The notes below the pieces were generated by a model. The model was not told the origin of the DNA. It did not search any database and saw nothing but the letters and a program-made list of their open reading frames with translations. 64,000 nt of DNA from an uncultured bacterium (GTDB taxonomy: Bacteria; Omnitrophota; Omnitrophia; Omnitrophales; Abzuiibacteriaceae), in the NCBI GenBank assembly GCA_964387845.1, contig CAYLXA010000009.1, positions 42,098 through 106,097 of the forward strand, read 5' to 3'. Below, piece by piece: positions 8,652-64,000 of this stretch (positions are counted from its first letter, which is position 1; every line of letters begins with the position of its first letter). Position numbers and translations under genes: made by a program.

Positions 8652-8679
8652 GTGATAAGTGATAAGTGGTAAGTGGTAA
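8652..8679. repeat. Four tandem heptamers in the 75-nt B-A spacer: GTGATAA x2 then GTGGTAA x2.
   Basis: Read directly: agtgataagtgataagtggtaagtggtaag. On the coding (minus) strand this is CTTACCA CTTACCA CTTATCA CTTATCA, ending about 10 nt before the A start codon. Confidence 0.7.
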
Positions 8680-8702: not shown

Positions 8703-8719
8703 AACTTACGACTGAAAAA

Positions 8720-38100: not shown

Positions 38101-39689
38101 TTCTTAATTGCTTCGTCATACTCTTCCGGGTTTGTAACATCGCCGAACAACACATCCGTGACGATACCTTCGGTATTTTCAAATGCTTTTAACGTGTTTG
38201 CTTCTCTTAGGCGGGATTTTTCGTTGTAGTCAGCAGCAATTACAACCAACGGATGTTCCTTGAGATGTTTGCCGCGCAAAGTGTTCTGAATAATGTGATC
38301 GACTGTTAATTTTAAAAGATGCCCGTCGCCTGCGCCCATATCCGCAATTCCGGCAGGCTGGGCTTCAATAGGCGCGTTAAAAATCCGGTCAACCCGCGCA
38401 ATAATATCTTGGATATAAGCTTTATGCGCAAAGCTGCTGCCCCAGATATCCATCACGCGGTCAATGTGGCCGTCCCGGTCAATACCAAGCGGATCCGGAT
38501 TTCCAAAAAGCATTTGGTCTAAAACTTTGTAGGATTTTAAATAGGATGTCGTAACGCCATAGCTGCCCACTTTCTTCATAAACGACAGCCCTTTGGGTGT
38601 GAGGCGGACTAGATGACGCTGATGCGGCTGCCGCTCGGCCAGACTATGTATTGCCAACAGGTCGAATGCTGCGTCTATAAAACCGCGCTGAAAGCTTTCG
38701 GAAATGAGCCCAATATCAAAACTATTGTTTTGAGCTTCTAATTGATTAAAGATTGATTCTCCGACTTGGACAATTTCGCCGTCAACATCGCGATAAACAG
38801 GCATACCGAGCGCCACCATCGTTGCGCTCATGATGATACCGTCGATTTGAGTCCGTACTTCCTCAATTACCCTGCCCACTACCCTTGAATCATGGTGCCT
38901 GAATATAGGACTGGATGAGCTTGGCAAACTCCATCCACGCGCACTTTGTTCAACCAATGCCTTATACTGCTTAAGTTCCACGTAGCGCCCGTCTTGGCTT
39001 GGTTGATGAAAATATTCATGAAGCCTTACAACGTCCGCGATTCCTTTAACCGGTGTTTCTAAATAGCCGGCATTTGCAAGCAATGCCGCAATCTGCCCTT
39101 TTTCCGTTAGTGAAAAAACGGTCTGCTGGTCAATGCCCCACATCCTAACCCACCCCTGCAGGGCAAGCGTCCGCATCGCTCCGTAAATGTTGCCTGCATT
39201 AAATTTTTCTCCATACGATGCAAACCTTGACTCTAAACTGGCTAAACTTAAGGATTCAGGCTGTGTCCAAGACCCGAATTGATAGAAAACACCCGCTTTA
39301 GATAAATAATGAAGTATGGGAATTGTCATAAGGCCGTTAATGTGCTGGAAGATCAGCGACCGAACTTCGCTTTCGGATACAGGGCCGATATTGGATCTTA
39401 ATTCCGACCTGGGATTAAAAAGCGTTTTGACAAACTGGACGGTGATATCCGCGAGCGAATGCTGCTCTAAGATTTTTTCTTCCGGAAGATCAAGTTCTTT
39501 TCTGAGTTCGGAACGGAATGCGGGCACCATATCCGCCGATTCCGGACGCAGCGTAGAATTATATTTCAGCGCCGAGGTCAGGTAAGGAATGTCGGAATAA
39601 GCGATAGAACTTGTAAATGAAAACGAAACTACAAGCAGTGCAGAAATTAACTTAAGAAAATAATTTTGTTTCATCTTATCCCTTACCAC
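26148..39689 (-). CDS. Giant mosaic polyprotein C, 4513 aa, built from methylmalonyl/propionyl-CoA modules. The likely true start is the ATG at 39672..39674.
   Basis: ORF-track start is GTG at 39687..39689. The in-frame ATG 5 codons downstream (39672..39674) is preceded by AAGGGA (plus strand 39679..39684) at SD distance, and lies 2 nt after the TAA of ORF X (GGT AAG GGA TAA g ATG). This indicates translational coupling. The leader from the ATG reads [28 protein letters not shown]. Confidence 0.85.
   Translation of the reverse strand: [4513 protein letters not shown]
26151..26700 (-). other. C-terminal conserved region of C.
   Basis: ...[34 protein letters not shown]...[30 protein letters not shown]...[11 protein letters not shown]. 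The FDEGL block is also found in E. Confidence 0.4.
26775..26789 (-). other. Example RSELR site in C (codons AGA TCG GAG CTT CGC).
   Basis: Plus strand gcgaagctccgatct. Reads [15 protein letters not shown]. Confidence 0.9.
26800..27380 (-). other. Module in C: P-loop nucleoside/sugar kinase-like (uridine kinase/PRK family).
   Basis: [22 protein letters not shown] (~27300..27345), [17 protein letters not shown]. Preceded by [12 protein letters not shown] and followed by [11 protein letters not shown] (26775..26789). Confidence 0.45.
27560..28330 (-). other. Module in C: carboxyltransferase alpha (AccA-like).
   Basis: [72 protein letters not shown] (~27855..27890), [14 protein letters not shown]. 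No biotinyl-carrier (AMKM) domain was seen in C. Confidence 0.85.
28340..29230 (-). other. Module in C: acetyl/propionyl-CoA carboxyltransferase beta (AccD-like) with a partially degenerate zinc ribbon.
   Basis: [22 protein letters not shown] (~29155..29200, only one CxxC pair), [60 protein letters not shown]. Confidence 0.85.
29260..30700 (-). other. Module in C: biotin carboxylase (ATP-grasp) with BC C-terminal domain. The glycine-rich ATP loop is partly degenerate.
   Basis: [11 protein letters not shown]..., [27 protein letters not shown] (~30185..30260; canonical KASAGGGGKGM), [33 protein letters not shown]. C-terminal domain [14 protein letters not shown]...FDTNYL. Confidence 0.65.
30950..31650 (-). 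other. Module in C: SAM-dependent methyltransferase-like, copy 2.
   Basis: [21 protein letters not shown] (~31495..31540). Confidence 0.5.
31790..33830 (-). other. Module in C: B12-dependent acyl-CoA mutase (methylmalonyl-CoA mutase family), catalytic barrel plus canonical B12-binding domain.
   Basis: [27 protein letters not shown] (~33740..33810), [20 protein letters not shown], and the B12 domain [34 protein letters not shown] (~32090..32190, DxHxxG present). Confidence 0.85.
33850..34060 (-). other. Module in C: glyoxalase/VOC-fold segment, methylmalonyl-CoA epimerase-like.
   Basis: [64 protein letters not shown]. Confidence 0.35.
34000..35050 (-). other. Module in C: MeaB/ArgK-family GTPase, copy 2.
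   Basis: [76 protein letters not shown] (~34860..34905). Confidence 0.8.
35250..36230 (-). other. Module in C: MeaB/ArgK-family G3E GTPase (mutase chaperone), copy 1. Followed by a Rossmann B12-binding-like domain that lacks DxHxxG.
   Basis: [77 protein letters not shown] (P-loop at ~36110..36160). Preceded by [12 protein letters not shown]. Confidence 0.8.
37800..38500 (-). other. Module in C: SAM-dependent methyltransferase-like, copy 1.
   Basis: [24 protein letters not shown] (motif I, ~38300..38370). Confidence 0.5.
39590..39689 (-). other. Leader of C: conserved Sec-like leader.
   Basis: (MVRDK)[35 protein letters not shown]. First RSELR at about residue 58. Confidence 0.6.
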
Positions 39690-41250
39690 TGCTTTCGTCA
39701 GATTCCCCTTTAATGTACCAGCGGCCGTTTTCCCATTTTTCCGTGAGCATGCGGCGGTAAAGTTCGGGGCCTTGGCTGAGGCCGACAGTCGGCGCGATTA
39801 CGACAACGTTAAAGCCAATCCGGTTCAGTTTTCGGATAAGGCGTTCTTTATGGAAACCGCCCGCGATTAAAACGGATTCGGGTTCCCGGTCAGCTTTGAT
39901 TTTCTCCGTGAGATTTTCCACGAGCGCCTGGTCGCGCATGTTGGCGATGCGGTAAAAAGATTGAAATTCATCGAGTGTTTCATCCAGTTTCGCCAAATTA
40001 GACGGTAACGAAATATTTTTTCCCTGCCCGCCGGCCTGCGCATTGAGAAAATTTTTCCATCCTGCGATTTTGAAGCGGTCGCGCTCGTCCATGAAAACCT
40101 GATACTGCTCAGGGACGAGCTCCAATTTGACAAGCGATTCCAGAATCACGAGATCGTTTGACATCCGGTAAACCCGCTTCCCTTCCGGTGTTTCCAAAAA
40201 TGCGTCTGCAATACGGTCTGTGAGCTTTGCTTTTTCATCGAAAAACGCGAGCGAATCAATCTGATCCTGCTTCCTCAAATACGGAATAGCGCCTTTGACG
40301 GACGGATACTTATTGGTATCGATCGAATTTTTTTCGGCAAGTTCGATTAATTTTTCGTAAAAATCGGCGCGCTTATTGGCGTCTTTCTCAACGCCGTGTT
40401 CCGTATCCAAAACCGCGCGCAGTTCTTTGGCATCGACGCGGCGCTGCATCTCACGGACCAATTGTGTGCGCTCGTAATCGACTTTTTCGAAATCGGCGGT
40501 AGATTCCAATTTAATCAAACTGGAAAGCACTTCGACGTTCGGATAATCCGAAATCGAGATATTTTTCTTAGCGGCGAACTGAAAAAGAAGTTTGGCTTCC
40601 TGGTGCAGGTTGTGTTTGGCTGTAAAATCCTCAAGCTGGGTTTCAAATTCTAAAAATTCCTTCGGATAGAGACCGGGCTTGACGGCATTCACCGCAATCC
40701 TGACCTGTTTGAGCTGGTCTAGCATGTTCTGCATGAGCGGCTCAACTTTGGTAAATGCAATCAGGTTTTCGTCATACAAAACCTGGCTTTCGATTCCCCA
40801 CAAGAGCAACGGATAGTCTTCCGTGAAGTTTAAATATTCTTCTCCCGAAATTTTGCCTTCGCGCATCAGTTTGGTGCCGATTTCAACGCGTTTCTCCTTA
40901 GGGCCCACGCGGTATTCCGACAAACTCACATCGCCGATTCCGCCTTCGACCAAAACAAGCCGGATGTCGCGCGCTTTGTGGAGCGACTCGATGATTTTTG
41001 CCATCGCTTTTTGAGCTTCAAAATTAACGTGTGCGTCTAGGATATAAAAGATATTGAAAGGCTTTGAGCCCGGATGGTATTCCGAAATGCGGCCGGTTTC
41101 TTCGGGAATCTTAATCTGCGCGATATCGGCAGGAAGCGACACTTTGGAGCTTGCTGAGTAAAGTTCAGGGGCGCCTAAAAAACTCAGGGAAGCTATCAGA
41201 GCTAGGCAAATTGCGGTTGTGCGAAAACGTGGAGTGAAAACCATATGCAA
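39676..41250 (-). CDS. ORF X, 524 aa. Signal-peptide protein with a tentative Tiki/TraB/GumN-superfamily hydrolase-like pattern. Candidate processing enzyme.
   Basis: Start is TTG at 41248..41250, 9 nt from the GGGAGG SD at 41260..41265. An alternative ATG lies at 41242..41244. Signal peptide MVFTPRFRTTAICLALIASLSFLGAPELYSAS. The N-terminal motif IFYILDAHV and C-terminal motif VLIAGGFHKERLIRKLNRIGFNVVVI resemble the two conserved blocks of TraB/GumN (hh-Y-L-G-T-H ... V-G-A-G-H-L ... G-Y-x-V). The match is weak. It has no RSELR motif. The stop is TAA at 39676..39678. Confidence 0.8.
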   Translation of the reverse strand: MHMVFTPRFRTTAICLALIASLSFLGAPELYSASSKVSLPADIAQIKIPEETGRISEYHPGSKPFNIFYILDAHVNFEAQKAMAKIIESLHKARDIRLVLVEGGIGDVSLSEYRVGPKEKRVEIGTKLMREGKISGEEYLNFTEDYPLLLWGIESQVLYDENLIAFTKVEPLMQNMLDQLKQVRIAVNAVKPGLYPKEFLEFETQLEDFTAKHNLHQEAKLLFQFAAKKNISISDYPNVEVLSSLIKLESTADFEKVDYERTQLVREMQRRVDAKELRAVLDTEHGVEKDANKRADFYEKLIELAEKNSIDTNKYPSVKGAIPYLRKQDQIDSLAFFDEKAKLTDRIADAFLETPEGKRVYRMSNDLVILESLVKLELVPEQYQVFMDERDRFKIAGWKNFLNAQAGGQGKNISLPSNLAKLDETLDEFQSFYRIANMRDQALVENLTEKIKADREPESVLIAGGFHKERLIRKLNRIGFNVVVIAPTVGLSQGPELYRRMLTEKWENGRWYIKGESDESSGKG

Positions 41251-41288: not shown

Positions 41289-44200
41289 TTACGCCGAACG
41301 GAGCGTCCGCAATTCGCTGCGAAGCTGAATACTCAATTGCTCAACAATATCCCGGATGCCGAGCGCCCGATAAAGCGCGCTGACATCTTCGCGCGACACA
41401 TACTCGACAAGACTTTTGTAACGTTCGCCGAGACGCTCAAAAAATGCTTTTTCGCGCTTAGAAGCAAGAATGCGTGTTTTATTAGCACCTTTTTCGATTA
41501 ATTGCCGGCGCGCATCCGGATAACTTCTTGAAAATACCACATGATCGATTGAAATACCCTGAAGCACGTCCCGGATAGCGGCTTCACCGGTGCTGTCAAC
41601 CACAAATGCAATCCGGTCGACCTTCGGAACGATAAAACGAAGCGCCCACAAAAGCTCCTGGCCCTTTTCCGTTCTTTCGCTTTCGGCCAGCACAAGATCT
41701 TGAGTCAAAATCGTGCCAAGAACTTGATCGGATTGAGAAGGCGCAAAATAATCAAAGAAACGGATGGTGCTCGTGGGGTCATCATAATTGGGAAACCGCA
41801 GGTTTTCAACCGCTGCGTAGACAAACCCGCCAAGCTCTGTGCGCGCATTCCGATCAACCATATCGCCGAGCGTCGCAAAATCATCAACAACAGCACTTGA
41901 TGCCCTCAATTCAGATCGAATGCCGGATTTTTCACTGGTTGCGGCCAATTGAGATTCCGCGGATGGCCCTACGTTCCTCCGAACCACAATCTTTGAAATT
42001 AAATCCCTAATTCCGGAATCTGTTCTTTGATACGTACTCAAATTCGGTAATTTCAAACCTAAAGCCCCGGACAAACTTTTGAGCGTCGGGTGCTTAATTT
42101 TACCTTGAACCATTGATTGGAGCGCGACGCGAAGTCTGTCCCTTGTGGGGGCTGGTTTAGTTTCCATTTGGTCTTTCGAATTTCTGAGCGAACCTTCAGT
42201 GACAGCCCATTGTATGACTGCTTCAATAGCGGGATCGGACTTCCGATAGTTAACTAAAGTATCATAGGCGACATCCGCCTCAGCCGCTAACTCAGTTAAA
42301 GTTGTTTGCAGCCTACCTTCTTGGCCTAAGCGTTTCACCGTATCCAATATTCTGTCGCGGACAGACATCTTCGGAGTTTCTGTTTCTTCGCGCAACTCGG
42401 AACGGCCGGATTGTCGCGATCGGAAAGCCCGGATTCCTTCCATGAGCTGAGTGCCGGTGACAGCTATCGCTTCACTTGCACCGGAGCCACCCTGAATTTC
42501 TCGCTCAACATCTTTTATCTCCAGTGTATCAATGAACGCTGGGACCGTCTGATTATCAATATTCGATCCCGATGATTTCACATAATCGGCAAACAAACGG
42601 TCGATAGCAGAATTCACTTGGTCAGGAGTTGCCTCTGTCGCCCTTAATTCACTGCGCGGCTCCTGAATCCCGTCTGTATCAGAATCAGCCTGGCCGCTTT
42701 GCTCGGCTGTTTGAGCAACCGTAACGAAGTAGAAGGTCCCGCGTTTTGAAACACGGGCGCTTGGCACTGCGCCGGCTTCGGCTTGTTTCGGCATTGTTAG
42801 ATTGATTCGGTTTATCAGCCACTCCAAAGTAAGAAGATTGGAAACACGCTGATCTCCGTCACGATAGAGTTCGGCAATCAAGTAAGTTTGCCCCTCCACT
42901 TTCTCGGAAATTGCAATTTTGTAAGAATAAGGCTCGATCAGAAAAACACGCTGCTTTCTGCCCACATACTTGATTGCAATATGAAATGGGCCGCTTAATT
43001 CAACTGCTTTCCGGCCAAGTTTAAAATCAGATCTTTGCTTCGACAATTTAATAGGAACAACCCACAGCGCCGCCCAAAGGCCGGCTCCCAGCGCTGCGAA
43101 GCCGTACTGAGAAACAATATAAAAAAAGTCACTCGCGATGCTGACCGAACCTCCCAAATTATTTCTGAGCTCTGAACGCGAGGCAACTACCTCTGCATCT
43201 TCGGGGCCTAGATAAATTGTGTTTAAAATATCCTCGGGAATCAAAGCAACAATTTGTTTTGCAATAACGGCCGGAGCCCGAATGGCTGCCGATAAAGTAA
43301 AATTCGATATTTCAATGATCAGCGTTTCGTTGGCAATATCAAATTTAAAATTGACTATATCTTCATCTGGATCGGGATGTAATTTGATCTCAATGCGCGG
43401 AAGTATATCGAGATTACGGTGTGCACGGCCAAAAGCTGATATTAAATGTGAACGCAAATACTCTTGCGGAGTCACTTTCGCCTCTTTTGAAGCTGCTGAA
43501 GAGAAAGGTGTATTTGTCCGGTTTGCGAATGCCGAAAATCCTCGCTTGATTACTAAAGTGACTAACGAAATGACACCAGCGAATAAACCGCCGGCAATAT
43601 ATTGAGAACCGGCATACACCAAATCAGAATATTCGGATGCACGAAGTTCGGATTTCTCGGCGCTGCCGGCTTGCGTTTCCAATTCGGCAAGTAACTTTTC
43701 GGCTTCCCTATCAGCTTCGGCGCTCTTTTTAAAAAGCGACAGGAAGAGATATATGAGAAAAGTAGAAATAAAACTGACACCGATTGCTACCTGCATCGGC
43801 TTTGAAGGGTCATGCGAAAGCCATTTGGTTAGCTGGTAAACAACAAACCCCGAAATAGCAGACGCGCCGGCAGAAATCGCCAACCTTACCAGTGAATTAC
43901 GTAGTTCGGAACGGTGAGCATCATCCGAACTGGATTTTGGAGTTGAATTTTGATCTTTAATTTCACGAACAAAAAGTCGGAAGAAAATGCTCAACAGTAC
44001 ATTACCAATCCACAATCTGAATTTACGGGTTGAACTTTGGTCTGTGACTGAACTGCCTGCTACCGCGGCACTCATAAGGTCAAATTCATCGTCATTGTCA
44101 TTGGCAACCTGAGATCCGCTCGTTTGATTTGTCGCTTGTGGTTTTAAACGCCAATACGCAAGAAGCGTCAAGCCAATAATCGTTCCCACCACAATTAACC

Positions 44201-47200
44201 CAACCCAACCTGCAGCGGCTCCTGTCAGAATTTTTAACGGCAGGTTCAATTCCGACCACGCGCTGCGTAGTTCGGAACGATGAGTAGTAACGGGGACGGT
44301 AGACCCCACAACGCCAAGAAGATCGAAACGTGCGCTGCTGTCCACGCGCTGGTCTGCTTTTGTGATTAAATCAAAAAGAGACTGCAAAGCTTGTTTCTGA
44401 TTTTCGTCGCGGACTTGCGCAAAAGCAAGCTGCAAAGCAGCTTCGGCATGGCTAAGCTGGCCTTTATTGAAAATCACGGCGGCCTGACGGACTAAAGATT
44501 CTAAATCGACAATTTCCGTAGGAAGCGGGGCAAATGGAAGCGATTCAAAAAATTTCCGGCTCTCACGGTCAGCAAAAGCTTGAGGCGTAATGCCTTCCGC
44601 TTTGGCGCTTTGCAAAATAACTCTCGTGCGGTGTTGGATTAAAGCCGCGATAGAACTATCGGAAGAATCATGCCCCAAATGGCCGTCAACTCCGGTGACG
44701 CCACCGGCATTGGAAATATAATCCGGAACCGGTGTAATGCCCGCTGCTTTCAGCTCTTCCGCATCTTTCACCTTATCATAAAGCACATTATTCGTAGACC
44801 CGACAACGCCCTTTACTCCGGCAAACATTAACTCTTTTGCAGCATCCGCATTAATCACAGGCCCTCGGGCTGCCGGCACAAAAATATCGACATGATCAAC
44901 GCCCAGCCGGTTAAAATCATCTTTGAAATGCTTTGCCGGATTAAAAATCTTGGTTGTATAACCGCCGCCGGTTTTCGGTTCTTCCAAAAAGTGAAAGAAA
45001 CGGTTTTGGTCAGCGTAAGTTTTAAGCGCCGGATGATCTTCGAAAAGTTTATCGATCCTTCCCTGGCTTACATCCGAAGCGATGACAACGCCGCCTTCAT
45101 CCAAAATGGGCTGAATGACTTCGCTGCCGACACCACCCACGCCTTGAACTGTGAAAACTTTTCCCGCGATTTCGGGATTATCGGGAAAAATTTCTGATAA
45201 TAAACCTTTTAATGAAGCAATGATCCCAACGCCGGTCGGATGAGTCGGGACTTTGCTGTTTCCGGTTTCATCCGAATAAGGCACGATTGAAGTCGGCGCA
45301 AATTTAAACAGCAGTTCGGCGTCCCGGACCGAAATATTCATGTCTTGTCCCGTTAAAACACCGCCGCCGATTAAATTTCCTATTTTCTCAACTGCTTTAG
45401 CGTAACTTTCAAGAATCGCATCGCGTTCGGGAGACTGAACCGCCGGATTAACCTTGTGGCTTCGGATAGCCGATTTGGAGCCGCCGATTTTTAAACCATT
45501 AATACCGGCACCTGCATTTTTAAAACTCATTTCCTGAGAAAGTTCAAGAGCATCAATCAACGCATCGACATCGCTTTGATAGCTCAAAATTCGCGTGCCG
45601 CCGGTAGCGCGCCACTGCCCGTTTAGGACACGGCCTTTGCTCTGAATTTGGGTAAGCCGGTGAATGGCAACATAAGCGGTATAACCCAAGATCGGGTTGT
45701 CAATTTGAAATACGGCGTAATGCCGGTCCCAATGCTCACGGATCTGATCGACTGCTTCCGGAAAAGCCGCCATGAAATCACTCAAATTGCGCAATGCGTG
45801 GATTTCGGTGCCATCCGGCATCACCATTCCGTCAAGGCGCTTTGGGTCCAACCGGTTGGCTTCGATATCGTATAAACGCAAATCGGCCACAACAGCTTTG
45901 GCCTGCCCCACAACCGATTCGCCCTGCGAATGATAAAGCCCGATTTCAATCCGCTCAAAAATGCCGATTAACTGTTCAAAGGATTCCGCGAGAGATAAAA
46001 GTGTTTGCGCAGTGGGCGTACCGACAATATTAAATTTTTTTCTGGTTGAAAAATCTCTTAATACGGCAGCGAAACTCTGAAACTGGAAATTTAAGATTTG
46101 GACAGTCTTAAGATTGATTAATCCTGCATCAAGTACAACTTGAATATCGGTTTTGATTTTATTAAAAATCGGAGCGCGCACAACATCGCCCGCTACATCT
46201 CTTTCACTTTGTGTTGCCGCCGTTTCTTCCAGTTTCTGCGAACTGCTCTGAATTAACTGGACGCTTTCCAAAATAAGCCCCAGAACTTCACGAACATCCT
46301 TCTGCCGCAGCTCGGACTTTGCCAAATGGCTTGGCAAAGCCGAAGCAGTCCCGCGCAGTTCAGCGCGGGGCAGCTCGGCCGTTGATTTCGCCTCGGAGCG
46401 GGAAAGTTCTTCGAGAATAGAATCGGGTTGATTTGGATCGAGTATTTCCTTTAATTTTGCCAAAGCGATACTTCTATCTGAAAAATCTTTAACAGCCTGT
46501 ATCAATTCTGACAGCGCCTTGCCTGTAGGACTCGTCGGCGCTTCAGCACGAGTCCGATGTTTGTCATAGCGTAGCGAATCTACTAAAAGAAACGCTTCGT
46601 GGGCTTTGCCGTGAAGCTGCTTCCACCGATGGTATGTATTGGGCATATTTCGTTGGAAGCCTGCTAAATCTGACTCCAGTTGCTCAAATATTGATTGGGC
46701 TTGAATAAGGCTGCTGTGAATAAATCTTATATCCTTTTCGGTTTGATGAAATTCCGGAGCGCTTGGGTTGATCATGACCAAGACAGGAGGAAATTTTTGT
46801 TTCACTTTCTGAACCATAGGAATAAGTTGAGTTAAAATTTCTTCAAGAGTCGCGCGCAGCTCGGAGCGCGAATTCTTGAAAGCGTTGTTTCGGACGCCGG
46901 ATTGATACTTGAAAGAGGTGTAAACATAAGTAATCGCAGCACCAATAAGCCCTGCGCCTACGCCGATCAGAATATACAGCGGCGTTGATTCAATGCCGTA
47001 TCCAATACCGAGGATCGGAACGCTTACCGCGCCGGCGATGCCACCTGTAAAAAGACCGATAACCACGGAGTGAAGCACGCGCTCCCCTCGTGACATGTCT
47101 TTCAAAATACTGAATGACCTCGCCCGCAGCTCGGACTTTGCCAAATGGCTTGGCAAAACCGAAGCAGCCCCGCGCAGTTCAGCGCGGGGCAGCTCGGCCC

Positions 47201-49076
47201 TGTGAAGACGCTCCGTATCCACAGGTCTCTCGAGTTGTGGTTCCGAAGGAACTTTACGAACCTCGGAACGGCTATGCAATAATGGTAGTTTCGACAAAGG
47301 CGTACCTGCATTGCTATCGAGAAACTCTTGAACGAGCTTAGAAACTGTTTCCGCTTTTGCGTTTTCTGCTTTAACAGTAATAAGCCATGTTGGATAACTA
47401 TCCGCCCAAATAAACTGAAGGTCTTGATATTTCAAAAACCGTCGTGTTCCATAATAAGAATCGATAATTTCAACACCATTTTCATTTTGAGAAACAACCA
47501 CGCCTTGAATGTCGTCACTCTCCTTAATTTTTGCGTGCAGAAAATACCAATAACCCTTTACTCCAGGCTTATTATTCCCAAGATGAAAATGCATCCGATC
47601 CCAAAGATTCATCCAATCCTGGATACCTTCCACAACTTCAATAATTTCAATTTTCTTAGCTTTCTGTTTGGACTGCCGCAGCTCGGAGCGGGGCTTTTCG
47701 CCGTCACGCAGACGTGAATGCCGGGCTTGAGTAATGTGCGGCGTATCGTCTTCCACGGGCTCTTGAATATCCTTAGGATCTGCGCCGTGGCGAAGCTTTT
47801 GAAGATACGTCAAGTCAGCGTCTGCCTGCGGCGGCGTTTGGTCATCTTCCGATGCGTGGCGTAATTCTGAACGTTGGTCAGTTTTAGGTTGCGGTGTTAA
47901 TGTGGGCCACTCCTCCCAAACCCATTTCTTTCTCATACGTTCTTCCGCCGGATAATCAGTTGTACCAATCATGAAATGTGAGCCATGAGGAGAGAGCCAA
48001 TATTCATCCTCTGCACGGCCTTTACCAGAACTTACGGTCAGGACGAAATCTTGGTGTTCGCTAAGAATGGCGGTTACTTTTTCAACAAAAGCTTGTGTCG
48101 TGGCTTCATTCATTAAACGGTATCTCAAATTTGCTACTTCATCGTCAATGAAATCTTCAGAAGGCAATAAACCGCTTAAATTTAAATTTCTCACCTTCTC
48201 TTCAATGCTGTGAATAATTTGATTTTTTCTGATTTCACGCGCACTTAACACAGGAGCAGATTGATACGCCTTGCGCACCATGCGGTAATAAGTAATCGCA
48301 GCGCTAATAAGCCCTGTACCAACGCCGATCAAAACAGATGAGGCGGTCGATTTAATGTTGTATCCAGTGCCGAGAATCGGGACACTCAAAGAACCGACAA
48401 TACCTCCGACAAAAACACCGATGAGCAAGGTATTGGCAATAAGTTCTCCCCGCGACATACCCTTAAAAGCTCTTGCTCGCAATTCAGAACGGGATTCTGA
48501 TCGAGTTTCGATTGAAATTTGAACTTGATCGGTAGAGGCAACTATCACGTTCTCAAGCGCAGGCTTTAAGTCAAAACGGATAACTAACCAATCCGTACTG
48601 ACCGGAATGTTGCTTCCGTTGATTGAGATACCGGAAATACGGACATGGGACCAGGGGTCAAATTTGAGATGCAAACCGGTTTTTTGGCTGACGATATTTA
48701 AAATATCCAAAACGATTGAAGAGAGTTTCTTAGTTCCAATGCGCTGATTGTAAGAATACGGTTCTCCGTTGATGGTAAAATTGATATTCGACAGAGCCCG
48801 TTCGGTTGATTGCTCCGGAAGTCGTAATTCTGATTTTTTACCAAAATCATCCTCCGGAATTTCCAGTTTTGCGGGGATTTCAATGCCTGCTTTACGAAGC
48901 TCAGAACGCACGTTTGAGAACCCAGTGTGCGCTTCCGGATTTGCCCGTATGTGATAAACTTCGGAATTTTTAAGCGCAACAGAAGACGCAAAATCCGTGT
49001 AACCGACGGTACTAGTAAATGTAAAAGTGATGAGGAGTGTGAGCGAAATAATCTTCAAAAATGGCTTGCCGGACAT
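41289..49076 (-). CDS. Giant mosaic polyprotein D, 2595 aa. Contains TM modules, a Glu/Leu/Phe/Val-type dehydrogenase and a TetR-like HTH.
   Basis: ORF-track ORF. ATG at 49074..49076 with AAAGGGA 13 nt upstream. TAA at 41289..41291. Leader MSGKPFLKIISLTLLITFTFTSTVGYTD. It carries the largest number of RSELR-type motifs, about 18. Confidence 0.85.
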   Translation of the reverse strand: MSGKPFLKIISLTLLITFTFTSTVGYTDFASSVALKNSEVYHIRANPEAHTGFSNVRSELRKAGIEIPAKLEIPEDDFGKKSELRLPEQSTERALSNINFTINGEPYSYNQRIGTKKLSSIVLDILNIVSQKTGLHLKFDPWSHVRISGISINGSNIPVSTDWLVIRFDLKPALENVIVASTDQVQISIETRSESRSELRARAFKGMSRGELIANTLLIGVFVGGIVGSLSVPILGTGYNIKSTASSVLIGVGTGLISAAITYYRMVRKAYQSAPVLSAREIRKNQIIHSIEEKVRNLNLSGLLPSEDFIDDEVANLRYRLMNEATTQAFVEKVTAILSEHQDFVLTVSSGKGRAEDEYWLSPHGSHFMIGTTDYPAEERMRKKWVWEEWPTLTPQPKTDQRSELRHASEDDQTPPQADADLTYLQKLRHGADPKDIQEPVEDDTPHITQARHSRLRDGEKPRSELRQSKQKAKKIEIIEVVEGIQDWMNLWDRMHFHLGNNKPGVKGYWYFLHAKIKESDDIQGVVVSQNENGVEIIDSYYGTRRFLKYQDLQFIWADSYPTWLITVKAENAKAETVSKLVQEFLDSNAGTPLSKLPLLHSRSEVRKVPSEPQLERPVDTERLHRAELPRAELRGAASVLPSHLAKSELRARSFSILKDMSRGERVLHSVVIGLFTGGIAGAVSVPILGIGYGIESTPLYILIGVGAGLIGAAITYVYTSFKYQSGVRNNAFKNSRSELRATLEEILTQLIPMVQKVKQKFPPVLVMINPSAPEFHQTEKDIRFIHSSLIQAQSIFEQLESDLAGFQRNMPNTYHRWKQLHGKAHEAFLLVDSLRYDKHRTRAEAPTSPTGKALSELIQAVKDFSDRSIALAKLKEILDPNQPDSILEELSRSEAKSTAELPRAELRGTASALPSHLAKSELRQKDVREVLGLILESVQLIQSSSQKLEETAATQSERDVAGDVVRAPIFNKIKTDIQVVLDAGLINLKTVQILNFQFQSFAAVLRDFSTRKKFNIVGTPTAQTLLSLAESFEQLIGIFERIEIGLYHSQGESVVGQAKAVVADLRLYDIEANRLDPKRLDGMVMPDGTEIHALRNLSDFMAAFPEAVDQIREHWDRHYAVFQIDNPILGYTAYVAIHRLTQIQSKGRVLNGQWRATGGTRILSYQSDVDALIDALELSQEMSFKNAGAGINGLKIGGSKSAIRSHKVNPAVQSPERDAILESYAKAVEKIGNLIGGGVLTGQDMNISVRDAELLFKFAPTSIVPYSDETGNSKVPTHPTGVGIIASLKGLLSEIFPDNPEIAGKVFTVQGVGGVGSEVIQPILDEGGVVIASDVSQGRIDKLFEDHPALKTYADQNRFFHFLEEPKTGGGYTTKIFNPAKHFKDDFNRLGVDHVDIFVPAARGPVINADAAKELMFAGVKGVVGSTNNVLYDKVKDAEELKAAGITPVPDYISNAGGVTGVDGHLGHDSSDSSIAALIQHRTRVILQSAKAEGITPQAFADRESRKFFESLPFAPLPTEIVDLESLVRQAAVIFNKGQLSHAEAALQLAFAQVRDENQKQALQSLFDLITKADQRVDSSARFDLLGVVGSTVPVTTHRSELRSAWSELNLPLKILTGAAAGWVGLIVVGTIIGLTLLAYWRLKPQATNQTSGSQVANDNDDEFDLMSAAVAGSSVTDQSSTRKFRLWIGNVLLSIFFRLFVREIKDQNSTPKSSSDDAHRSELRNSLVRLAISAGASAISGFVVYQLTKWLSHDPSKPMQVAIGVSFISTFLIYLFLSLFKKSAEADREAEKLLAELETQAGSAEKSELRASEYSDLVYAGSQYIAGGLFAGVISLVTLVIKRGFSAFANRTNTPFSSAASKEAKVTPQEYLRSHLISAFGRAHRNLDILPRIEIKLHPDPDEDIVNFKFDIANETLIIEISNFTLSAAIRAPAVIAKQIVALIPEDILNTIYLGPEDAEVVASRSELRNNLGGSVSIASDFFYIVSQYGFAALGAGLWAALWVVPIKLSKQRSDFKLGRKAVELSGPFHIAIKYVGRKQRVFLIEPYSYKIAISEKVEGQTYLIAELYRDGDQRVSNLLTLEWLINRINLTMPKQAEAGAVPSARVSKRGTFYFVTVAQTAEQSGQADSDTDGIQEPRSELRATEATPDQVNSAIDRLFADYVKSSGSNIDNQTVPAFIDTLEIKDVEREIQGGSGASEAIAVTGTQLMEGIRAFRSRQSGRSELREETETPKMSVRDRILDTVKRLGQEGRLQTTLTELAAEADVAYDTLVNYRKSDPAIEAVIQWAVTEGSLRNSKDQMETKPAPTRDRLRVALQSMVQGKIKHPTLKSLSGALGLKLPNLSTYQRTDSGIRDLISKIVVRRNVGPSAESQLAATSEKSGIRSELRASSAVVDDFATLGDMVDRNARTELGGFVYAAVENLRFPNYDDPTSTIRFFDYFAPSQSDQVLGTILTQDLVLAESERTEKGQELLWALRFIVPKVDRIAFVVDSTGEAAIRDVLQGISIDHVVFSRSYPDARRQLIEKGANKTRILASKREKAFFERLGERYKSLVEYVSREDVSALYRALGIRDIVEQLSIQLRSELRTLRSA
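41292..41800 (-). other. C-terminal conserved region of D.
   Basis: ...LVLAESERTEKGQELLWALRFIVPKVDRIAFVVDSTGEAAIRDVLQGISIDHVVFSRS...QLRSELRTLRSA*. Confidence 0.4.
41904..41918 (-). other. Example RSELR site in D (codons CGA TCT GAA TTG AGG).
   Basis: Plus strand cctcaattcagatcg. Reads GIRSELRASSAVVDDF. Confidence 0.9.
42200..42375 (-). other. Module in D: TetR-family-like N-terminal HTH DNA-binding segment.
   Basis: MSVRDRILDTVKRLGQEGRLQTTLTELAAEADVAYDTLVNYRKSDPAIEAVIQ fits the TetR helix-turn-helix pattern (G..TT..IA..AGV..G.LY.HF.SKE). Confidence 0.45.
44650..45700 (-). other. Module in D: Glu/Leu/Phe/Val-type amino-acid dehydrogenase family.
   Basis: MSFKNAGAGINGLKIGGSKSAIRSHKV (~45425..45540, GGxK catalytic-Lys loop), VQGVGGVGSEVIQ (NAD loop), DIFVPAARG, AAGITPVPDYISNAGGV (~44700..44750). 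Confidence 0.7.
46324..46400. repeat. Copy 2 of a 77-nt near-identical direct repeat inside D.
   Basis: ccgcagctcggactttgccaaatggcttggcaaagccgaagcagtcccgcgcagttcagcgcggggcagctcggcc. Differs from copy 1 at 2 positions. Encodes ELPRAELRGTASALPSHLAKSELRQ. Confidence 0.8.
46930..47080 (-). other. Duplicated TM module in D, copy 2.
   Basis: VVIGLFTGGIAGAVSVPILGIGYGIESTPLYILIGVGAGLIGAAITYVY, preceded by KSELRARSFSILKDMSRGE. About 55% identical to copy 1. Confidence 0.55.
47123..47198. repeat. Copy 1 of the 77-nt direct repeat inside D. Contains a GC palindrome, 8-bp arms with a 6-nt spacer, at 47167..47188.
   Basis: cccgcagctcggactttgccaaatggcttggcaaaaccgaagcagccccgcgcagttcagcgcggggcagctcggcc. 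The palindrome is ccccgcgc-agttca-gcgcgggg. Encodes ELPRAELRGAASVLPSHLAKSELRA. Confidence 0.8.
48300..48450 (-). other. Duplicated TM module in D, copy 1 (two glycine-zipper-like helices).
   Basis: LLIGVFVGGIVGSLSVPILGTGYNIKSTASSVLIGVGTGLISAAITYY, preceded by SRSELRARAFKGMSRGE. Confidence 0.55.
48975..49076 (-). other. Leader of D: conserved Sec-like leader.
   Basis: MSGKPFLKIISLTLLITFTFTSTVGYTDFASS. First RSELR at about residue 56. Confidence 0.55.
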
Positions 49077-49364: not shown

Positions 49365-52300
49365 TTAGGCGCGCGATAGGACTATTTGGTATGAACGGAT
49401 GAATTGATCGATAGCTTCGACGGCTTTCCCAAGGCGGCCTCGGATACTGCTAATCATATCAGCCGTGAATAAAACAACGCTTGTGAAATAATCACTCAGT
49501 TCACTTCTCACGATTTCTGCCTCATGGCTTGAATCCGTAAAGTAAATGTTAGTCCGGATTCCCTTCGAACGCATGAGTTTGGCTAATTTTTCAGGCGTTG
49601 CGGCATATAAAATTTGTCTATCAATGGGAAGTGATGCATTGAGTTCATCGACAAAGCGAAGTTCGGAACGCGTGGGTGTTACAAATCCGATTCTCACATT
49701 CGACTGAGCTGCAATTTGAACATAATACGGCGCGAGCCCTTCATCGAACACAATGCTCCGCGCAAATACCCAGCCTTGGCTGGTACTATCGTGAATAAGT
49801 TTATCAGCAGCCATGGAGCGGTGAAGCTCGGAACGTAATCCGGGGTTTTGTTGAAGCTGGGTTCCAATGGCCTGATGCGCTTTTGTTAGAGATGAAAGCC
49901 TTGTATCAGTAATATTGAGGGCATCTTCTGCATTTAGCCTTTGGAAATCCGCGCTTGCTGTCCTTGAATTCCGAAGCTCGCTGCGGACTTTCCATGGATT
50001 GGACCTTTCCGGAGGATTTGTATACTTGTTACGTTCTGTTATTACTCGCTCAAGCCCTTCCTTTGCGCTATTGACAGCGGCCGACGCAGAAGCCCATTTG
50101 CTCGGATTAAGTAATTGCGTGCCATCCGGCTCTTCTGCAATTGGTGTTAAATGTTGAAGCTCGGCCCGCCGAAGATCGAGCTCTTTCTCTGCTAATGCGA
50201 CACGCGCATTTAAGATTGCTCCTTTTTGCTTGCTTGCTTCGGCTTCGGTCAATGCCGCCTGCGCTGCATTGAATGCTGCTTCAGCCGCGGCCACTTTGGG
50301 ATGAACTGTTTCAGTGCTTGCTCTTAATTCAGAACGCGATTCAAGAAATTGACGGTATGCTGCCAAGCTGGCAGATTCTGTGCGCGTATTGCCGTCTTTA
50401 ACAGTATCACCGGAAATATGCGCAAGCTGCTCACGCTCAAGCCAATCAAACACGATGCCGCCGGTTGAGATGTACCGATTCTTTACGCTTTCCGATTCTA
50501 ACGTTTCGCCGCCTTCGGTCCTGACGCGGACTTCATAGGAAGCAACAAAGGTCGGGTCGTTGGATGAAGCGCGAATCACGAAGCGCCCCGCCTCTTTCCC
50601 GGCTTCGTCTTTGAAGCGGATATCCGCAAACCGGTAAAGGCCGTCTTCGCCCTTGAAAGTTATGACTTCCCGGACTTTAAAAATACCGGCCGGCGATAAA
50701 AATTCTTTTTCTTTTGAGAATTCTTGAATTGCTTTTTCAACCGTCAGGTCACGGCCGAGCGCAATAATTTTCGGATTGGGTGTTGCTGTATCGCTATATT
50801 GATACCCCGTATCGTTGCGCGGATCTCCTGCCAATTTTTGCAAAAGCGACGCCTGAAACGGCGGTTGAAACCGCGTTGATTGTTTATAGGGTTTTGCATA
50901 ATGCTCGAATGCCGCTTCAAACGGAAATGGATTTTGTGTTTTGTGTTCTTGGGCGTATTGAGCAACTTGAATAACCGAAAGCACTGCCACTGCAATCGGA
51001 TTTTCGTATTCGCCGGTCACATCGAGCCACGCATGACCGGAGCGCTCGCTCAACATGGGGATACTGTAACCTTTCCCTTTTAATTCTTTGGCTTTTGCCT
51101 TCAAAAACGGGTAGCCGGAATCGGTTATAAATGTTTCAATTCCGTTTTCCCCGGCTGCATCTGCAACACCCAAAGTCGAAAGCACATCACTAATCACCGC
51201 CACATGCTCGGAGGAACGTGAATGATAACCGCCTCGATTAACCAAAAATGGGATGAGGATGGCCATTAAATTATCCGGCGGGAGCACAAGGAAACTGCCG
51301 TCCTTTCTCTTAATCACAATTGCTCCGCGATCGCCGTCCAAATCAAACGCGAGGCCGATATCAATATTTTCATCAGACATTTTGGTTCTTAATTCTTCAA
51401 GATTGGCCATAATAGACGGATCCGCTTTGTGCATTCCCGTAATCGACTGAACATCGCCGTTAATTAAAACGGCTTCGGCGCCCAAATTTTTGAATACAGC
51501 TTCCGCCAAATATCCGCTTGGTGTGTGGGCACCGTCAATCGCAATCCTAAGCCCTTCAAAGGGCTTTTGAAACATAACATACCCTGCGATCCGCTGCTCC
51601 CAATCTGATAATACTTTTTCCGGGAAATCACTCTTTCTCAATTGATCAGCCAAATTAAAAAGATTCGCCGCGCTACCTCCGATACCGGCAACTCGGCCAA
51701 CCAGCGTCGTTATGCGGACAGTATTAACATCTACGTTCAGCGCCCGGATATAACCTGACCTTTCGCCGGCATCGTGCACCATCCATCCGTAATCAGCCAT
51801 GTACTTTTGGACCATCGGAAGCGACACTGCTTTGATTTCTTGTGTCGTCAGACTCGCCAAGCGGCCTTCTTCGTCCTGTATGCTGACTTTTGCGCCGCGA
51901 ATTTCATCCGTGCTGGCCACATGGCTCGACGTCAGCAAAACACTGACGAGCGGCTGTATCTCGCGCACCGCCCAAGAATAAGAAGTTGCAGCATTCGGGC
52001 CGTCTTCTGCCGTATATACCACATCCAAACCTGCATATAAAAATCCTGCGGTCAAAGCTTCGACAAGTTCGGGTTCGATTTTGCGTGCATCGCGCGCAAT
52101 GACAACCGTTTCATTTTTAGAACCCGATTTCTTTGCCTTTTCAAACGCCATCCGTGCCCACGTAAGACCCCACAAAAACCAAAGCTTCGGCGACGGCGCA
52201 TGTTCTTTGTCTCGTGAACGGTAATCATAATCGCGCGCCATGAGTTTCACGAGCGTTTCATCTGCTTCGGTTGCCTTCATACGAATATATTTGGAGATCA

Positions 52301-55300
52301 GCTTCGTCGCATCCATCTCGGAAAGCCGTCTTAATTCGCTCCGTGCGGCAATTTCATTGCGCAAAGCTGAAAATGCACTGGATATTTTCTCGTTCAATTC
52401 CGAGACTTGCGCTGCGGTTCCGGCCGAAATCATTTCGGCCAGCTTTCCTTCCGCCTGAGAAGCGGCGGAACCTTGAAACTGCGACTGCAGCGACTGCCAT
52501 TTTTCCTGAATTTCCCTGGAACGTGCGTGGAGCTGCGTGGAAAGTTCTGAAAGCTCTTTCAAATTTTTTGATTCGATTTTTGTTTTCGCGGCAAGCTTGA
52601 CAATTTCCTGGAGTTTTTCCTCCCAATACCGGAAACCAAACAGCCATAATTTCCCGCTTTGAACTTTCAACGCCGCATCCAAATCACTCATTGCTTCGAT
52701 CGCCGCGCTAAACTCCGCATAAAACCGTTCGGCCGGATAAGGCGTAGCAGCAACTTCATGAAATGCGGCAGCGAACGGCTTTGCAACATTGTCCACCAAA
52801 GTTTTCAAGGCGGCTTCTTTTGCTTTTATGTCGGATTTGTCGCTATTGAGAGTTTTGCGTGCCGAAGGAAGCTCTGAAGACCTGACTGTATCGGTAACAA
52901 ATATCTGGACAGCGTCATTTTCAACCAAATCTCCCAAAACCTGCAGTTGCGGCATTGAGTGAGACTGGGCCGTATAAATACCCGTCAAAATATTTAACAA
53001 TTCTTTATCTTGGGCATCTTTCCAATCGACTGATAAGTTTGAAACAGAAATAGGCGTTTTGCCAATATGCCTAAATTTGCTGGTGATAAAAATTTTAATT
53101 TGGCTTTCGCTGATTTCAGGAGCTATTTTGTCAAATTCACCCGCACCAAAAGCTTGTTTAACAACAGCGGCCAAAACCTGCTTCAATGTATTCCGGCCAC
53201 CAACCTCCAATTTAAATTGCCGGACATTTCCGCGTATGTTGAGATTGATCACGAAATAAACCTTAGCACTTCCCTCGCCAAGCTTGGGTTGATTGGGCTG
53301 GATTACCGTTGTGCCGGCGGCAGGCTCTGAAGCATCCGGTTTAAAAGGTGATTCAAGCGTTACCGAATCTGCGCTTGGCGCTTTTACGGAAACTGAAATA
53401 ACGAACTTGGTCAAGCTGGCTTTAACAGGTTTGAGAGCCGGGCTGGCAGCAAATTCAACATCAGTCAAGACCGGTTTTGGCGCAGGTTTCTTGACTTCTT
53501 CTTTCTTATTTCCTTTAGCATCGTGATCGGCCTTGCGGGCTTCTTCAACTTCAACTTGCGGGACACTTCTTACCGCCTGAATGAATACAACACCGTGCAA
53601 AGACTGAAATTCTTCCAATGCCTCAATCATCGCCTCATCCCATTTCTCGGGGCGCACACCTTTCGCTAATTGATTCAGGAAATAAAGCCGGCCTTGATTG
53701 ACAGCATGAAGCTCTGAAATCGCATCCCAAATTTCGCCGATTTCTTTGACAACCTCCGGTGTAATCCTGATTTTACTGTCGGTCAACTTCTTTGCGATAT
53801 CATCCCTGAGCGCTTTTTCTTCGCGCAATTCCGAACGTCTTTCTTTTTTTGGCATCAAACTTAATTGGGGCAGCGAATCCCAAACCCAAACGGGAGCGTA
53901 AACATCTTCCTTCCACTCGTAAGTTCCTTGCAATCCCTCAATTGTATCCACCACATGGCTTTCTTCATGACCAGCACCAGGCTCCACGATTAGATCAAAA
54001 TCTTCGTGTGTTTCTAGAATTTTTACAGCCATGTCGATGAAATGCGGTTCATTGGCAAGATTTATATAGGTATCCCGAACTGCTTGCTGGGTGGCTGTTA
54101 TCAAATGCTGTTCTTTTAATTTCTGTTGAATCAGCTTGATTGTAATATTCCGCTTCAATTTATTGATCGCCCCTTTAACAACCGGCCTGTTGTCAAATAA
54201 AGTAACAAACTCGGGTCTCTGCTCTGTAATAGGACGTGATTCCATGTGACTGCCACCATACGGAGCCAAACCATGCTTTGCCTCGTAGCCATCTTGCTCA
54301 GGCCAAACTTCAACGTTTTCAAATTCGCCTGTTTCTACTGTTATCAAAGTTTCTACACGCCTGAAATCATCTTTTAGCTTCTCCAAATGCGGCAAAGCAC
54401 GGTCATCTTCAAGATGCCCCAAAGCAATAACCGCAAGCCGGCGAGTTTCTGGATCATGTGAAGACAGGTTTTGGATTAAAACGTCATAAATAGAATCAAT
54501 TTTTCTAATTACTATTTCAATCTCTTTTGAATTCCTACTATTCGCTAACCTATTAATCAATTGCAGTATGCTCCTCAATTGATCCAGCGAATACTGATTA
54601 ATCGCCTTCGGCAACCCCCACTTTAATAAGTTTGACACGTCTACTTTCTTATAAACCAATGTGTTGACTAACATATCGATCGCTTGCTTGATTGATTTTC
54701 GCTCCAAATCTTCAAACCTCCGAAGCGCGGTACGCACAGATGACCATGAGCCTATAGTTTGCCAAAAAGCGGTCCAAGTTAATTTACTCGCCCTTAATTC
54801 AGACCTCGCAAGAATTTCGAGAACCGCAGCACCGCTATCAAGATCAGCTGCTTGCAGAATTTGGTCGCCCGTAAATGGTGCTTTGCCTGCGTCTTTGGCA
54901 TAATGCACCAAATATTCGAAACCCGCTTGGCGCGCACCTTCGAATGCATCCGGGTCGTTATCAATCAAAACCGTGTTCCGGGCGTCTTCGCCTATCACAG
55001 ACCTGAATCGTTCCAGAACCTTATCGAAAAATTCGGGGGCTTTGCCTTTCTTCATGCCCAATTCGGATGAGAGGATCACCAGCCGGGGATCAAACAAATT
55101 TCCGTAGTGCTTCTTCAAAAACCGAAGTAAATGTTCTTTGCCTGCCAATTCGAAATTCACCACCACGCCGATATGGACGCCGTTATCTTTGATGGCCAAA
55201 AGTTTCTCGATCACTTGCTTGATGGCGGGATTTTCCGGACGCTCTCCGAAAAAAATGTCTTTAAATTCATCCTCGCTGAGCCCTTTAAATCCGTCCTTTT

Positions 55301-63677: not shown

Positions 63678-64000
63678 AGCCTTAGCGCCTCTTTCAGCAA
63701 ATTTTTGCCATTCATAAAAGCGCTGAGGCAGTCATGATTACCACATAGGAACGTTTTGAAACTCTTTATCAAAATCATGAACCCGGCTTCGCTCCCTTTG
63801 ATCGCGCAATTGCGGTTAAACCGCTGAGCGAAAGAGTAACATGCGGCTTTAGCTGAGTCAATAGATAAAGAAGTATATTAGGTTGTAATGTTTTTATATT
63901 GGGTACTAGTTGGTACTAATTGGTAAGATTAATAGATGGGGCGACAGCAAAAGTTCAATAAGCAAGTGCACCACTTGGAGTTAAAATAGTCGGGTATTAA

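Follow-up and report, generated by a model that had tools for sequence, protein, structure and literature searches.

In the vlsE system of Borrelia, 17-bp direct repeats flank exchangeable gene segments. Palindromic elements that lie in frame within genes are another known phenomenon: the Rickettsia palindromic elements (RPEs) are short hairpin-forming repeats inside genes that invariably keep the reading frame, insert a conserved peptide where it is tolerated, are present in unrelated genes and are common to several species (PMC10969869). The giant genes of the Omnitrophota are an open puzzle, and the points at which their protein products are cleaved have been stated to be unknown (West-Roberts et al., 10.1101/2023.11.21.568195). 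Here, we analysed a 64,000-nt stretch of a contig from an uncultured Omnitrophota bacterium (CAYLXA010000009.1; the whole stretch is called the window below), in which one of several giant genes, the minus-strand open reading frame (ORF) D, carries a 76-nt direct repeat. Units of this kind lie at three non-homologous positions in two Omnitrophota species; they have fixed limits and a fixed frame and orientation within giant multi-enzyme ORFs, are conserved at the DNA level beyond what their peptide needs, and contain two GC-rich hairpins, one of which is kept by compensation. With a probability of roughly 0.45, we read the repeat as a discrete and portable junction cassette, 76-78 nt (26 codons) long and in frame, that has been copied between linker sites and between genomes.

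Results

A sharply bounded 76-nt repeat within ORF D

The two copies lie at 46305-46380 (W1) and 47124-47199 (W2) of the window, with a start-to-start spacing of 819 nt (273 codons), and differ at only two positions (46339 G against 47158 A, and 46349 T against 47168 C; ~97% identity), both differences being non-synonymous. The original prediction, made from the sequence of the window, had described a 77-nt repeat with two mismatches about 800 nt apart inside ORF D; the repeat is real, but its length is 76 nt, its spacing is 819 nt, and the start then given for it (46324) falls 19 nt inside W1. In-register identity of the flanks drops to the random level of ~25% within one or two bases past both edges, and the peptides flanking W1 and W2 are unrelated. 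A decayed segmental (tandem) duplication was therefore ruled out, the paralogues within the window being 61-80% rather than 97% identical, and the copied piece must be the 76-78-nt unit itself. It is the sole direct repeat of >80% identity in the window, where the remaining direct-repeat families are paralogous protein modules of 61-80% identity, and its G+C content (67% vs 48% for the window) places it in the top 0.4% of 25-codon windows. An identical 9-mer, GCAGCTCGG on the + strand, stands in direct orientation at both ends of each copy, 63 nt apart (self-matches 3-11 and 66-74 of the unit), at 46307-46315 and 46370-46378 in W1, and at 47126-47134 (coding SEL on the minus strand) and 47189-47197 (coding AEL) in W2. 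This terminal repeat and the second of the two hairpins described below had both been missed earlier.

The window derives from a metagenome-assembled contig, which leaves some room for a repeat created or misplaced by the assembler or for a chimeric contig. This was assessed against an independent assembly (Logan contigs, k=31, run SRR15237813), in which two contigs, one encoding ORF C and one encoding ORF E, matched the window without a difference over 16.7 and 16.8 kb (100% identity). One contig ended at 46334 and the other at 47170, in both cases exactly k-1 bases (30 nt) into a copy when counted from its unique side, which is the behaviour of a de Bruijn graph branching at a true repeat and requires that two different contexts exist in the reads. 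Moreover, the reading frame is open through both copies, and in the other genome described below the cassette has that organism's own junction motif, RSEAR, on both sides, so that contig is no chimera joined at the repeat. An assembly artefact is thus highly unlikely. The Logan contig ending at 46334 is 37,644 nt long, and by this length its other end would lie near 8691, inside a palindrome at 8646-8718.

Two GC-rich hairpins

The cassette folds into two hairpins on either strand (shuffle z-scores of -3 to -6), and no other 76-nt window of the coding strand in the 64 kb is as stable as the two copies (-47.2 and -43.5 kcal/mol, against a mean of -16.0 kcal/mol and a standard deviation of 5.0 over all such windows). 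Hairpin A is built on the palindrome CCCCGCGC-AGTTCA-GCGCGGGG, for which the chance expectation of the 22-mer is 0.00 occurrences. Its 8-bp arms in W2 lie at 47168-47175 and 47182-47189, one base off the 47167..47188 given in the original prediction; with G47167-C47190 included, the hairpin spans 47167-47190 with nine perfect GC pairs, a 6-nt loop and a core of -22.8 kcal/mol, and encodes P-RAELR-G. It further extends to an irregular stem of 16 pairs, in which GCCGAGC pairs with GCUUCGGU or, seen on the coding strand, the first SEL-coding 9-mer pairs with GCUUCGG. The palindrome had been taken to be perfect in both copies, which holds for W2; W1 has only seven perfect GC pairs (46350-46369, arms 46350-46356 and 46363-46369) because of the T at 46349, which turns the eighth pair into C.A on the mRNA strand and T.G on the + strand. 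The loop had been placed exactly on the E-L codons, which is approximately right: on the coding strand the loop UGAACU starts on the third base of the Ala codon, takes in the whole Glu codon and stops after the second base of the Leu codon.

Hairpin B, CTTTGCCAA-ATGGC-TTGGCAAAG, lies at 46317-46339 in W1, with nine pairs and a 5-nt loop, and at 47137-47157 in W2, where it reads TTTGCCAA/ATGGC/TTGGCAAA; on the coding strand it is CUUUGCCAA/GCCAU/UUGGCAAAG, and on the mRNA strand it gains two extra pairs, one of them G.U. Its local fold energies are -14.5 kcal/mol in W1, -9.2 kcal/mol in W2 and -12.9 kcal/mol in the third copy. Overall fold energies are alike on both strands, and one variant wobble-pairs only on the mRNA strand and another only on the + strand, so the evidence favours neither strand, and neither RNA nor DNA, as the place where the hairpins act. 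An additional hairpin just upstream of W2 on the coding strand (47200-47229, CCUGUGGA...UCACAGG), which W1 does not have, makes the W2 region the most stable window overall. Other RAELR sites of the window (61503-61517 and 60486-60500) form no hairpin. Neither a slippery heptamer (X XXY YYZ) upstream of either hairpin nor a terminator-like site within 45800-47700 was found, and terminator and promoter signals did not exceed shuffled expectation. Matches in a scan of Rfam 15 were confined to the GC hairpin and stayed below threshold (25.9 bits, with a gathering score of 46), and ARAGORN found no tRNA or tmRNA in the 76-nt unit.

A third copy in a giant gene of another species

The third cassette was found at positions 1393-1468 of L009, a locus of contig MHFR01000032.1 from Omnitrophica bacterium RIFCSPLOWO2_12_FULL_44_17. 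It is exactly 76 nt long, encodes RAELPRAELRGTASASRPAVAKSELR and is read in the same frame as W1 and W2 within a giant ORF that is open across the entire 8-kb locus. When these 8 kb were compared with the window by blastp and blastn, the cassette was the only match, and the modules downstream of the three cassettes differ, being membrane, helical and helix-turn-helix (HTH)-like. Outside hairpin B the third copy is identical to W1 at 53 of 53 nt, including both bases that differ in W2. Within hairpin B, 11 of 23 nt and five of eight residues differ from the window, yet the hairpin is rebuilt in register, with three pairs changed on both sides, as in compensation, and one pair broken. In the covariation analysis, which covers three sequences and a single genome-to-genome comparison, 94% of cells were paired against 22-55% with slid partners, and 15 of 500 shuffles reached the observed value. 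The same codons are chosen for the given peptide with p ~1e-12 for the 18 cross-genome codons and 1e-16 for all 25 codons, all shared synonymous sites being identical across species.

In the giant ORF of L009 the cassette is flanked on either side by RSEAR or RAEAR sites, and [SA]ELR occurs nowhere else, whereas the window has no RSEAR and uses [KR][SA]ELR, which indicates that the two organisms are distinct lineages and that the motif brought by the cassette is 'foreign' in L009. The terminal 9-mers code for SEL and AEL even in this RSEAR-type genome and are therefore part of the unit rather than a host target. A near-identical unit in an unrelated giant gene of another species points to a movable linker and not to the leftover of an ordinary duplication. 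The 'very recent segmental duplication' offered in the original prediction accordingly does not stand, given sharp edges, unrelated neighbours and the recurrence of the unit in a non-homologous gene of another species, and neither does the plain old duplication that ordinarily diverged flanks were to have indicated, for the flanks are unrelated rather than diverged in that manner. The other possibility it had raised, selection on an RNA or DNA structure, receives some support from the two hairpins, the top two stable windows, the compensatory pairs and the identical synonymous sites of the three sequences. Absence of the palindrome from related genomes was to have weakened that possibility; it is present in one other Omnitrophota genome and absent from the one contig of the closest RSELR-type relative.

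The cassette lies in the linkers of putative metabolic polyproteins

The architecture around the cassette is more remarkable than the repeat itself. Six giant ORFs, one of them cut by the start of the window, follow one another on its minus strand, together with the ordinary gene ORF C (giant ORFs at <1 to ~8665, 8720-25876 for ORF A, 26148-39689 for ORF B, 41289-49076 for ORF D and 49365-63677 for ORF E). According to Pfam searches of all but the cut-off ORF at 1 to ~8665, they are in-frame strings of complete metabolic enzymes, including methylmalonyl-CoA mutase, MeaB, biotin carboxylase, carboxyltransferase, 3-hydroxyacyl-CoA dehydrogenase, acyl-CoA dehydrogenase, AMP-binding enzyme, RidA, a citrate-lyase-like aldolase, MaoC, phosphoglucomutase and UDPGP, and, in ORF D, a Glu/Leu/Phe/Val (ELFV) dehydrogenase. 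Between the enzymes stands the pentapeptide [KR][SA]ELR, at 51 sites in four ORFs, with the exact RSELR observed 42 times against 0.03 expected from composition. The motif logo is a sharp 5-mer, flanked by two neighbouring positions that prefer small residues only. The codons of the 51 sites vary synonymously (CGN/AGR for Arg, TCN/AGC for Ser); the original prediction was thus right that the other motif copies are not conserved at the DNA level, and such free variation indicates that the motif is selected as a peptide. Its natural reading from the sequence is a polyprotein junction site, probably a cleavage site, and the giant ORFs have the look of metabolic polyproteins of a bacterium, with a motif dedicated to junctions or cleavage. 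In a literature search, RSELR was not mentioned in this sense, and no polyproteins of Omnitrophota were described.

The junction motif seems to be lineage-specific among Omnitrophota giant ORFs. Besides RSEAR in L009, SSSP[AVI] occurs in a 3384-aa protein of JAHJFM010000053.1 (P0003, locus L029), and RSELR occurs in a 3262-aa protein of Logan contig SRR6489006_122 (P0002, locus L028) that strings together TIM, malate synthase, isocitrate lyase and ELFV dehydrogenase. In both loci checked, SSSP in L029 and RSELR in L028, the motif codons again vary synonymously.

On the coding strand both copies in the window read [R/T]AELP-RAELR-G[T/A]AS[A/V]LPSHLA-KSELR over 26 codons, in one shared frame of ORF D, so that each carries three junction-like motifs, RAELP, RAELR and KSELR. 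Taken to whole codons, W1 (TAELPRAELRGTASALPSHLAKSELR) spans 46305-46382 and W2 (RAELPRAELRGAASVLPSHLAKSELR) spans 47124-47201 on the minus strand, and they matched the covariance model of the cassette with 107 and 106 bits, respectively. Their host, ORF D, encodes 2595 aa with 18 [KR][SA]ELR sites and comprises an N-terminal hydrophobic leader, membrane modules, the ELFV dehydrogenase and a C-terminal module shared with other giant ORFs. The 247 codons between the copies (46383-47123) encode a two-helix membrane module, an RSELR site (46854-46868) and a helical module, and the enclosed membrane module is a paralogue of 48288-48430 with 73% nucleotide identity.

Each of the three cassettes has a native or decayed junction site 2-30 residues upstream of it. 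Directly upstream of W1 is the degenerate site RSEAK (46386-46400), and 21 residues upstream of W2 is the degenerate RSEVR (47256-47270); both are among only seven degenerate junction sites in the window, against 51 canonical ones. Degenerate neighbours are what would be expected if the cassette sites had replaced the native sites or made them redundant, and this position suggests a peptide-level role of the cassette in the organism of the window. For four of the seven degenerate sites (47256-47270, 46386-46400, 48489-48503 and 8810-8824, which include RSESR and RSEVK as well as the two named above), a canonical site lies at most 40 residues downstream, which suggests that redundant adjoining sites let one of a pair decay. 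At the site before the ELFV dehydrogenase module, matched by eye, P0002 has ASELR (2307-2330) and ORF D has ADLR (residues ~1023-1043, window ~45950-46010); ADLR appears to be a decayed junction site at which two modules have become fused.

The giant ORFs share further features. A homologous N-terminal hydrophobic leader of ~70 aa is common to all of them (25680-25876, 39480-39689, 48870-49076 and 63480-63677), and a C-terminal module of ~215 aa, 14-31% identical to the copy in ORF D, is common to the complete ones (8723-9379, 26151-26822, 41292-41954 and 49368-50045). In ORFs A and D only a few residues follow RSELR at the end of this module, and P0002 likewise ends with RSELRTSMSA; in ORFs B and E the motif is not at the very end. 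The motif is missing from one ORF of the cluster only, ORF C (39676-41244, minus strand, 522 aa), whose N-terminus resembles a signal peptide and which has a Shine-Dalgarno sequence of its own. It shares 14 nt with the start of ORF B and gave a weak Pfam match to the Tiki/ChaN superfamily that lies below the cut-off (E = 0.0016); searches of PDB and NCBIfam gave no match, and a single-sequence AlphaFold model had a pLDDT of 42. It may be regarded as a candidate processing enzyme. Between two giant ORFs, the intergenic region 8646-8718 is a long imperfect palindrome with 35-nt arms that are 80% complementary and with heptamer repeats GTGATAA/GTGGTAA; once G+C is corrected for, only one 76-nt window is more stable. 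Upstream of ORF E (63905-63930) stand comparable repeats of the TTGGTA type.

Searches for further copies

The 20-mer palindrome core CCCGCGCAGTTCAGCGCGGG was searched in one genome per species across 185,579 species. Within the Omnitrophota a single locus was found, that of MHFR01000032.1, which is also the one intact 20-mer locus in the whole MHFR01 assembly. The eight loci found outside the Omnitrophota, seven of them in G+C-rich taxa and none in a giant ORF, were taken as chance matches without inspection. A covariance model (R1) was built from the three cassettes and run with filters off, and a back-translated AELPRAELRG pattern was searched in metagenomes of the Joint Genome Institute (JGI) and in viral contigs. 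Seventeen of the 18 metagenome pattern matches were chance hits, out of frame in GC-rich DNA; two of them (L012 and L017) share one out-of-frame stretch, which in L012 lies inside the nuoA gene. Matches P0004-P0006 from a profile search of representative proteins were unrelated repetitive sequences, and a 14-nt exact match in ORF E (58930-58943, GAACTGCGCGGGGC, coding EELRGAT; blastn-short E = 0.013), which lies inside a module and not at a junction, is probably due to chance. Full-length copies will be under-represented in k=31 assemblies, because contigs break inside the cassette when a genome has two. The model R1 and the 20-mer provide a sequence handle for further copies.

Discussion

Weighing the explanations

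The repeat of ORF D is a real and unusual feature, known from three copies only. On the reading that we favour, that of a portable junction cassette, the mechanism of spread can be outlined as follows. The cassette itself may have been copied non-reciprocally into a second inter-module linker of ORF D or, alternatively, a module carrying one cassette may have recombined into a cassette already resident there; either event could have proceeded via the SEL-coding 9-11-mers at the cassette ends or with the help of an enzyme, and the RSEAR-type species would have obtained its copy by horizontal transfer. At the protein level, the cassette would give fresh junction sites, presumably proteolytic, beside decayed native ones, and at the level of nucleic acid its hairpins would be selected, either as a feature of the copying process or as mRNA structure. 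Several results weigh against this reading. Besides the small number of copies, the terminal 9-mers belong to the unit and are not a target duplication, being L-type at both ends in the RSEAR genome, and the cassette has no terminal inverted repeats. Pfam detected no transposase or recombinase in the scanned ORFs of the window. The covariance model found no copy beyond the two in the 64 kb and none in a contig (20 kb) from the nearest relative of RSELR type or in one from a relative of SSSP type, the back-translated pattern recovered only the same MHFR contig from the JGI metagenomes and nothing from viral contigs, and the profile search of 1.84 billion representative proteins returned ORF D only. 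Long-term constraint would account no less well than recent transfer for identity at 53 of 53 nt beside 11 changes among the 23 nt of hairpin B, the covariation comes from one genome-to-genome comparison, and cleavage at RSELR is itself deduced from the sequence.

The main rival, which we consider unlikely but well ahead of the others, is that the unit is a conserved cis-acting signal in RNA or in single- or double-stranded DNA, such as a ribosome pause, an mRNA processing site, or a binding or recombination site of a conserved protein, that is inherited vertically and held by selection at a few polyprotein junctions. The two strong hairpins, the compensatory changes in hairpin B, its two additional pairs (including G.U) on the mRNA strand, and the invariance of 53 nt between lineages diverged enough to alter their junction motif all speak for such a signal, and one or two copies per genome suit a site better than a spreading element. 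It is harder to reconcile with three copies in non-homologous contexts with different downstream modules, with the lack of a slippery heptamer before the hairpins, of a U-tract, of a promoter and of an Rfam family match, with wobble pairs that pick no strand, and with the absence of the structure from ~50 other junctions of the window and from the contig of the RSELR-type relative; nor does the structure require the L-type motif, which is nevertheless kept in the RSEAR lineage. Plain recent gene conversion or local linker copying, with the hairpins a by-product of GC-rich codons and the copy in the other genome an incidentally transferred fragment, appears improbable. The 97% identity extends over a tract long enough for RecA-type conversion, RAELR encoded as CGC GCN ... 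CTG CGC G is partly self-complementary by itself, and the covariation is modest, 15 of 500 shuffles reaching its value. However, two independent hairpins and an extended stem within 76 nt form the most stable windows of 64 kb while the RAELR sites at 61503-61517 and 60486-60500 form none, hairpin B was kept through its many nucleotide and residue changes, and the supposed fragment has exactly the same 76-nt limits.

Homologous recombination could also have inserted an 819-bp piece, consisting of a cassette with the membrane and helical modules, into a resident cassette of ORF D, the cassette serving as shared homology for in-frame module shuffling and the insert being left between direct copies. 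The direct repeats do bracket a self-contained two-module block of 819 nt (273 codons), the enclosed membrane module, at 73% to its paralogue in ORF D, is far older than a 97% repeat, the other genome has a single, unoccupied copy, and the two differing sites fit donor and recipient cassettes that differed. No donor locus or second cassette-bearing gene was seen in the material searched, and the multiple-of-three spacing, which holds for any two in-frame copies, is no evidence. This event leaves the hairpins and the cross-species identity unexplained, and we regard it as quite improbable.

A bolder extension of the cassette reading, to which we assign a very low probability, would make the unit the youngest representative, not yet decayed, of a mobile linker element by which neighbouring genes are welded into polyproteins. 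If this were true, each insertion would bring ready-made junction (cleavage) sites, synonymous drift would then erase the DNA similarity and leave the five-residue RSELR, the ~50 sites of the window would be old insertions, and RSELR, RSEAR and SSSP[AVI] would represent cassette families co-evolving with their own proteases. The cassette is the only place where the motif rides on a DNA-conserved, structured unit across species. If it moves, it would offer a concrete mechanism for adding or exchanging in-frame junctions, and perhaps whole modules, in polyproteins; if it is a fixed cis-acting structure, it would mark a regulated step in the expression of mRNAs of ~8 kb (ORF D) to >17 kb. With either reading, there are sites that proteomics and assays of RNA and DNA could test.

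Comparison with known systems

The cassette was compared with described classes of repeats and signals. Like MITEs (miniature transposable elements with inverted repeats) and repetitive extragenic palindromes or bacterial interspersed mosaic elements (REP/BIME), it is small and structured, has sharp limits and is dispersed to non-homologous sites; unlike them, it lacks terminal inverted repeats, a GTAG head and a true target-site duplication, lies within a gene and is of low copy number. A MITE was rejected on its ends, a 9-nt direct repeat (GCAGCTCGG) around a 54-nt interior with unrelated ends, and on copy number, with two in 64 kb and one 20-mer locus in the whole MHFR01 assembly; REP/BIME, which are mobilised by REP-associated tyrosine transposases (RAYT), were rejected on the intragenic position and the lack of GTAG. 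A 63-nt insert with a 9-nt target-site duplication, whose removal would restore [R/T]AELR, is weakened by the L-type 9-mers at both ends in the RSEAR-type genome. IS200/IS605-type ends do not fit two hairpins that are unrelated in sequence (TTTGCCAA vs CCCGCGC). The template/variable repeat pair of a diversity-generating retroelement was rejected because the coding-strand mismatches, A/G and C/U, are not adenine-specific on either strand, and no domain of a reverse transcriptase was detected among those ORFs of the window that were scanned. Integron attC sites were dismissed on the two separate hairpins and the lack of RYYYAAC/GTTRRRY core sites, a tRNA-like 76-nt element on the ARAGORN result, a known Rfam family on matches amounting to sub-threshold GC-hairpin noise, and an intrinsic terminator, a promoter or a -1 frameshift signal on the lack of a U-tract, of signals above shuffled expectation and of a slippery site, respectively.

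Other systems share one aspect each with the cassette. As in translational bypassing (the gap of T4 gene 60 and the mitochondrial 'byp' elements), a GC-rich hairpin insert stands in an ORF between matching short repeats, and removing the 63 nt between the 9-mers would restore a canonical [R/T]AELR in all three copies; the cassette, however, is open in frame, and with no stop following a take-off codon its translation does not depend on bypass, the unit is no obligatory bypass insert, and nothing suggests skipping. The linkers of viral polyproteins also place a short conserved motif between complete functional proteins of one ORF, but viral cleavage sites do not lie on a DNA-conserved, structured and repeated unit, and for RSELR both cleavage and the protease are presumed from the sequence. 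In common with vlsE cassettes and integron attC, direct repeats bracket an in-frame segment and could serve as recombination homology, although silent donor cassettes and an integrase are absent and the cassette has no attC core sites.

The closest parallel is with the RPEs. These differ from the cassette in being ~100-150 bp long, with ten families and tens of copies per genome, whereas the cassette has 76-78 nt and has been seen in one or two copies per genome, carries a functional-looking motif of three junction sites and lies only in the linkers of polyprotein genes. The two would not be expected to be related in sequence. For the trait of multi-copy spread, the count stands at three copies, from genomes that are not complete. 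Yet in all three copies a hairpin repeat lies in frame within unrelated coding contexts and adds a conserved peptide, and like the RPEs it stands in unrelated genes and is common to more than one species. The behaviour of the cassette may therefore be said, by analogy, to resemble that of the in-frame palindromic elements of Rickettsia (PMC10969869).

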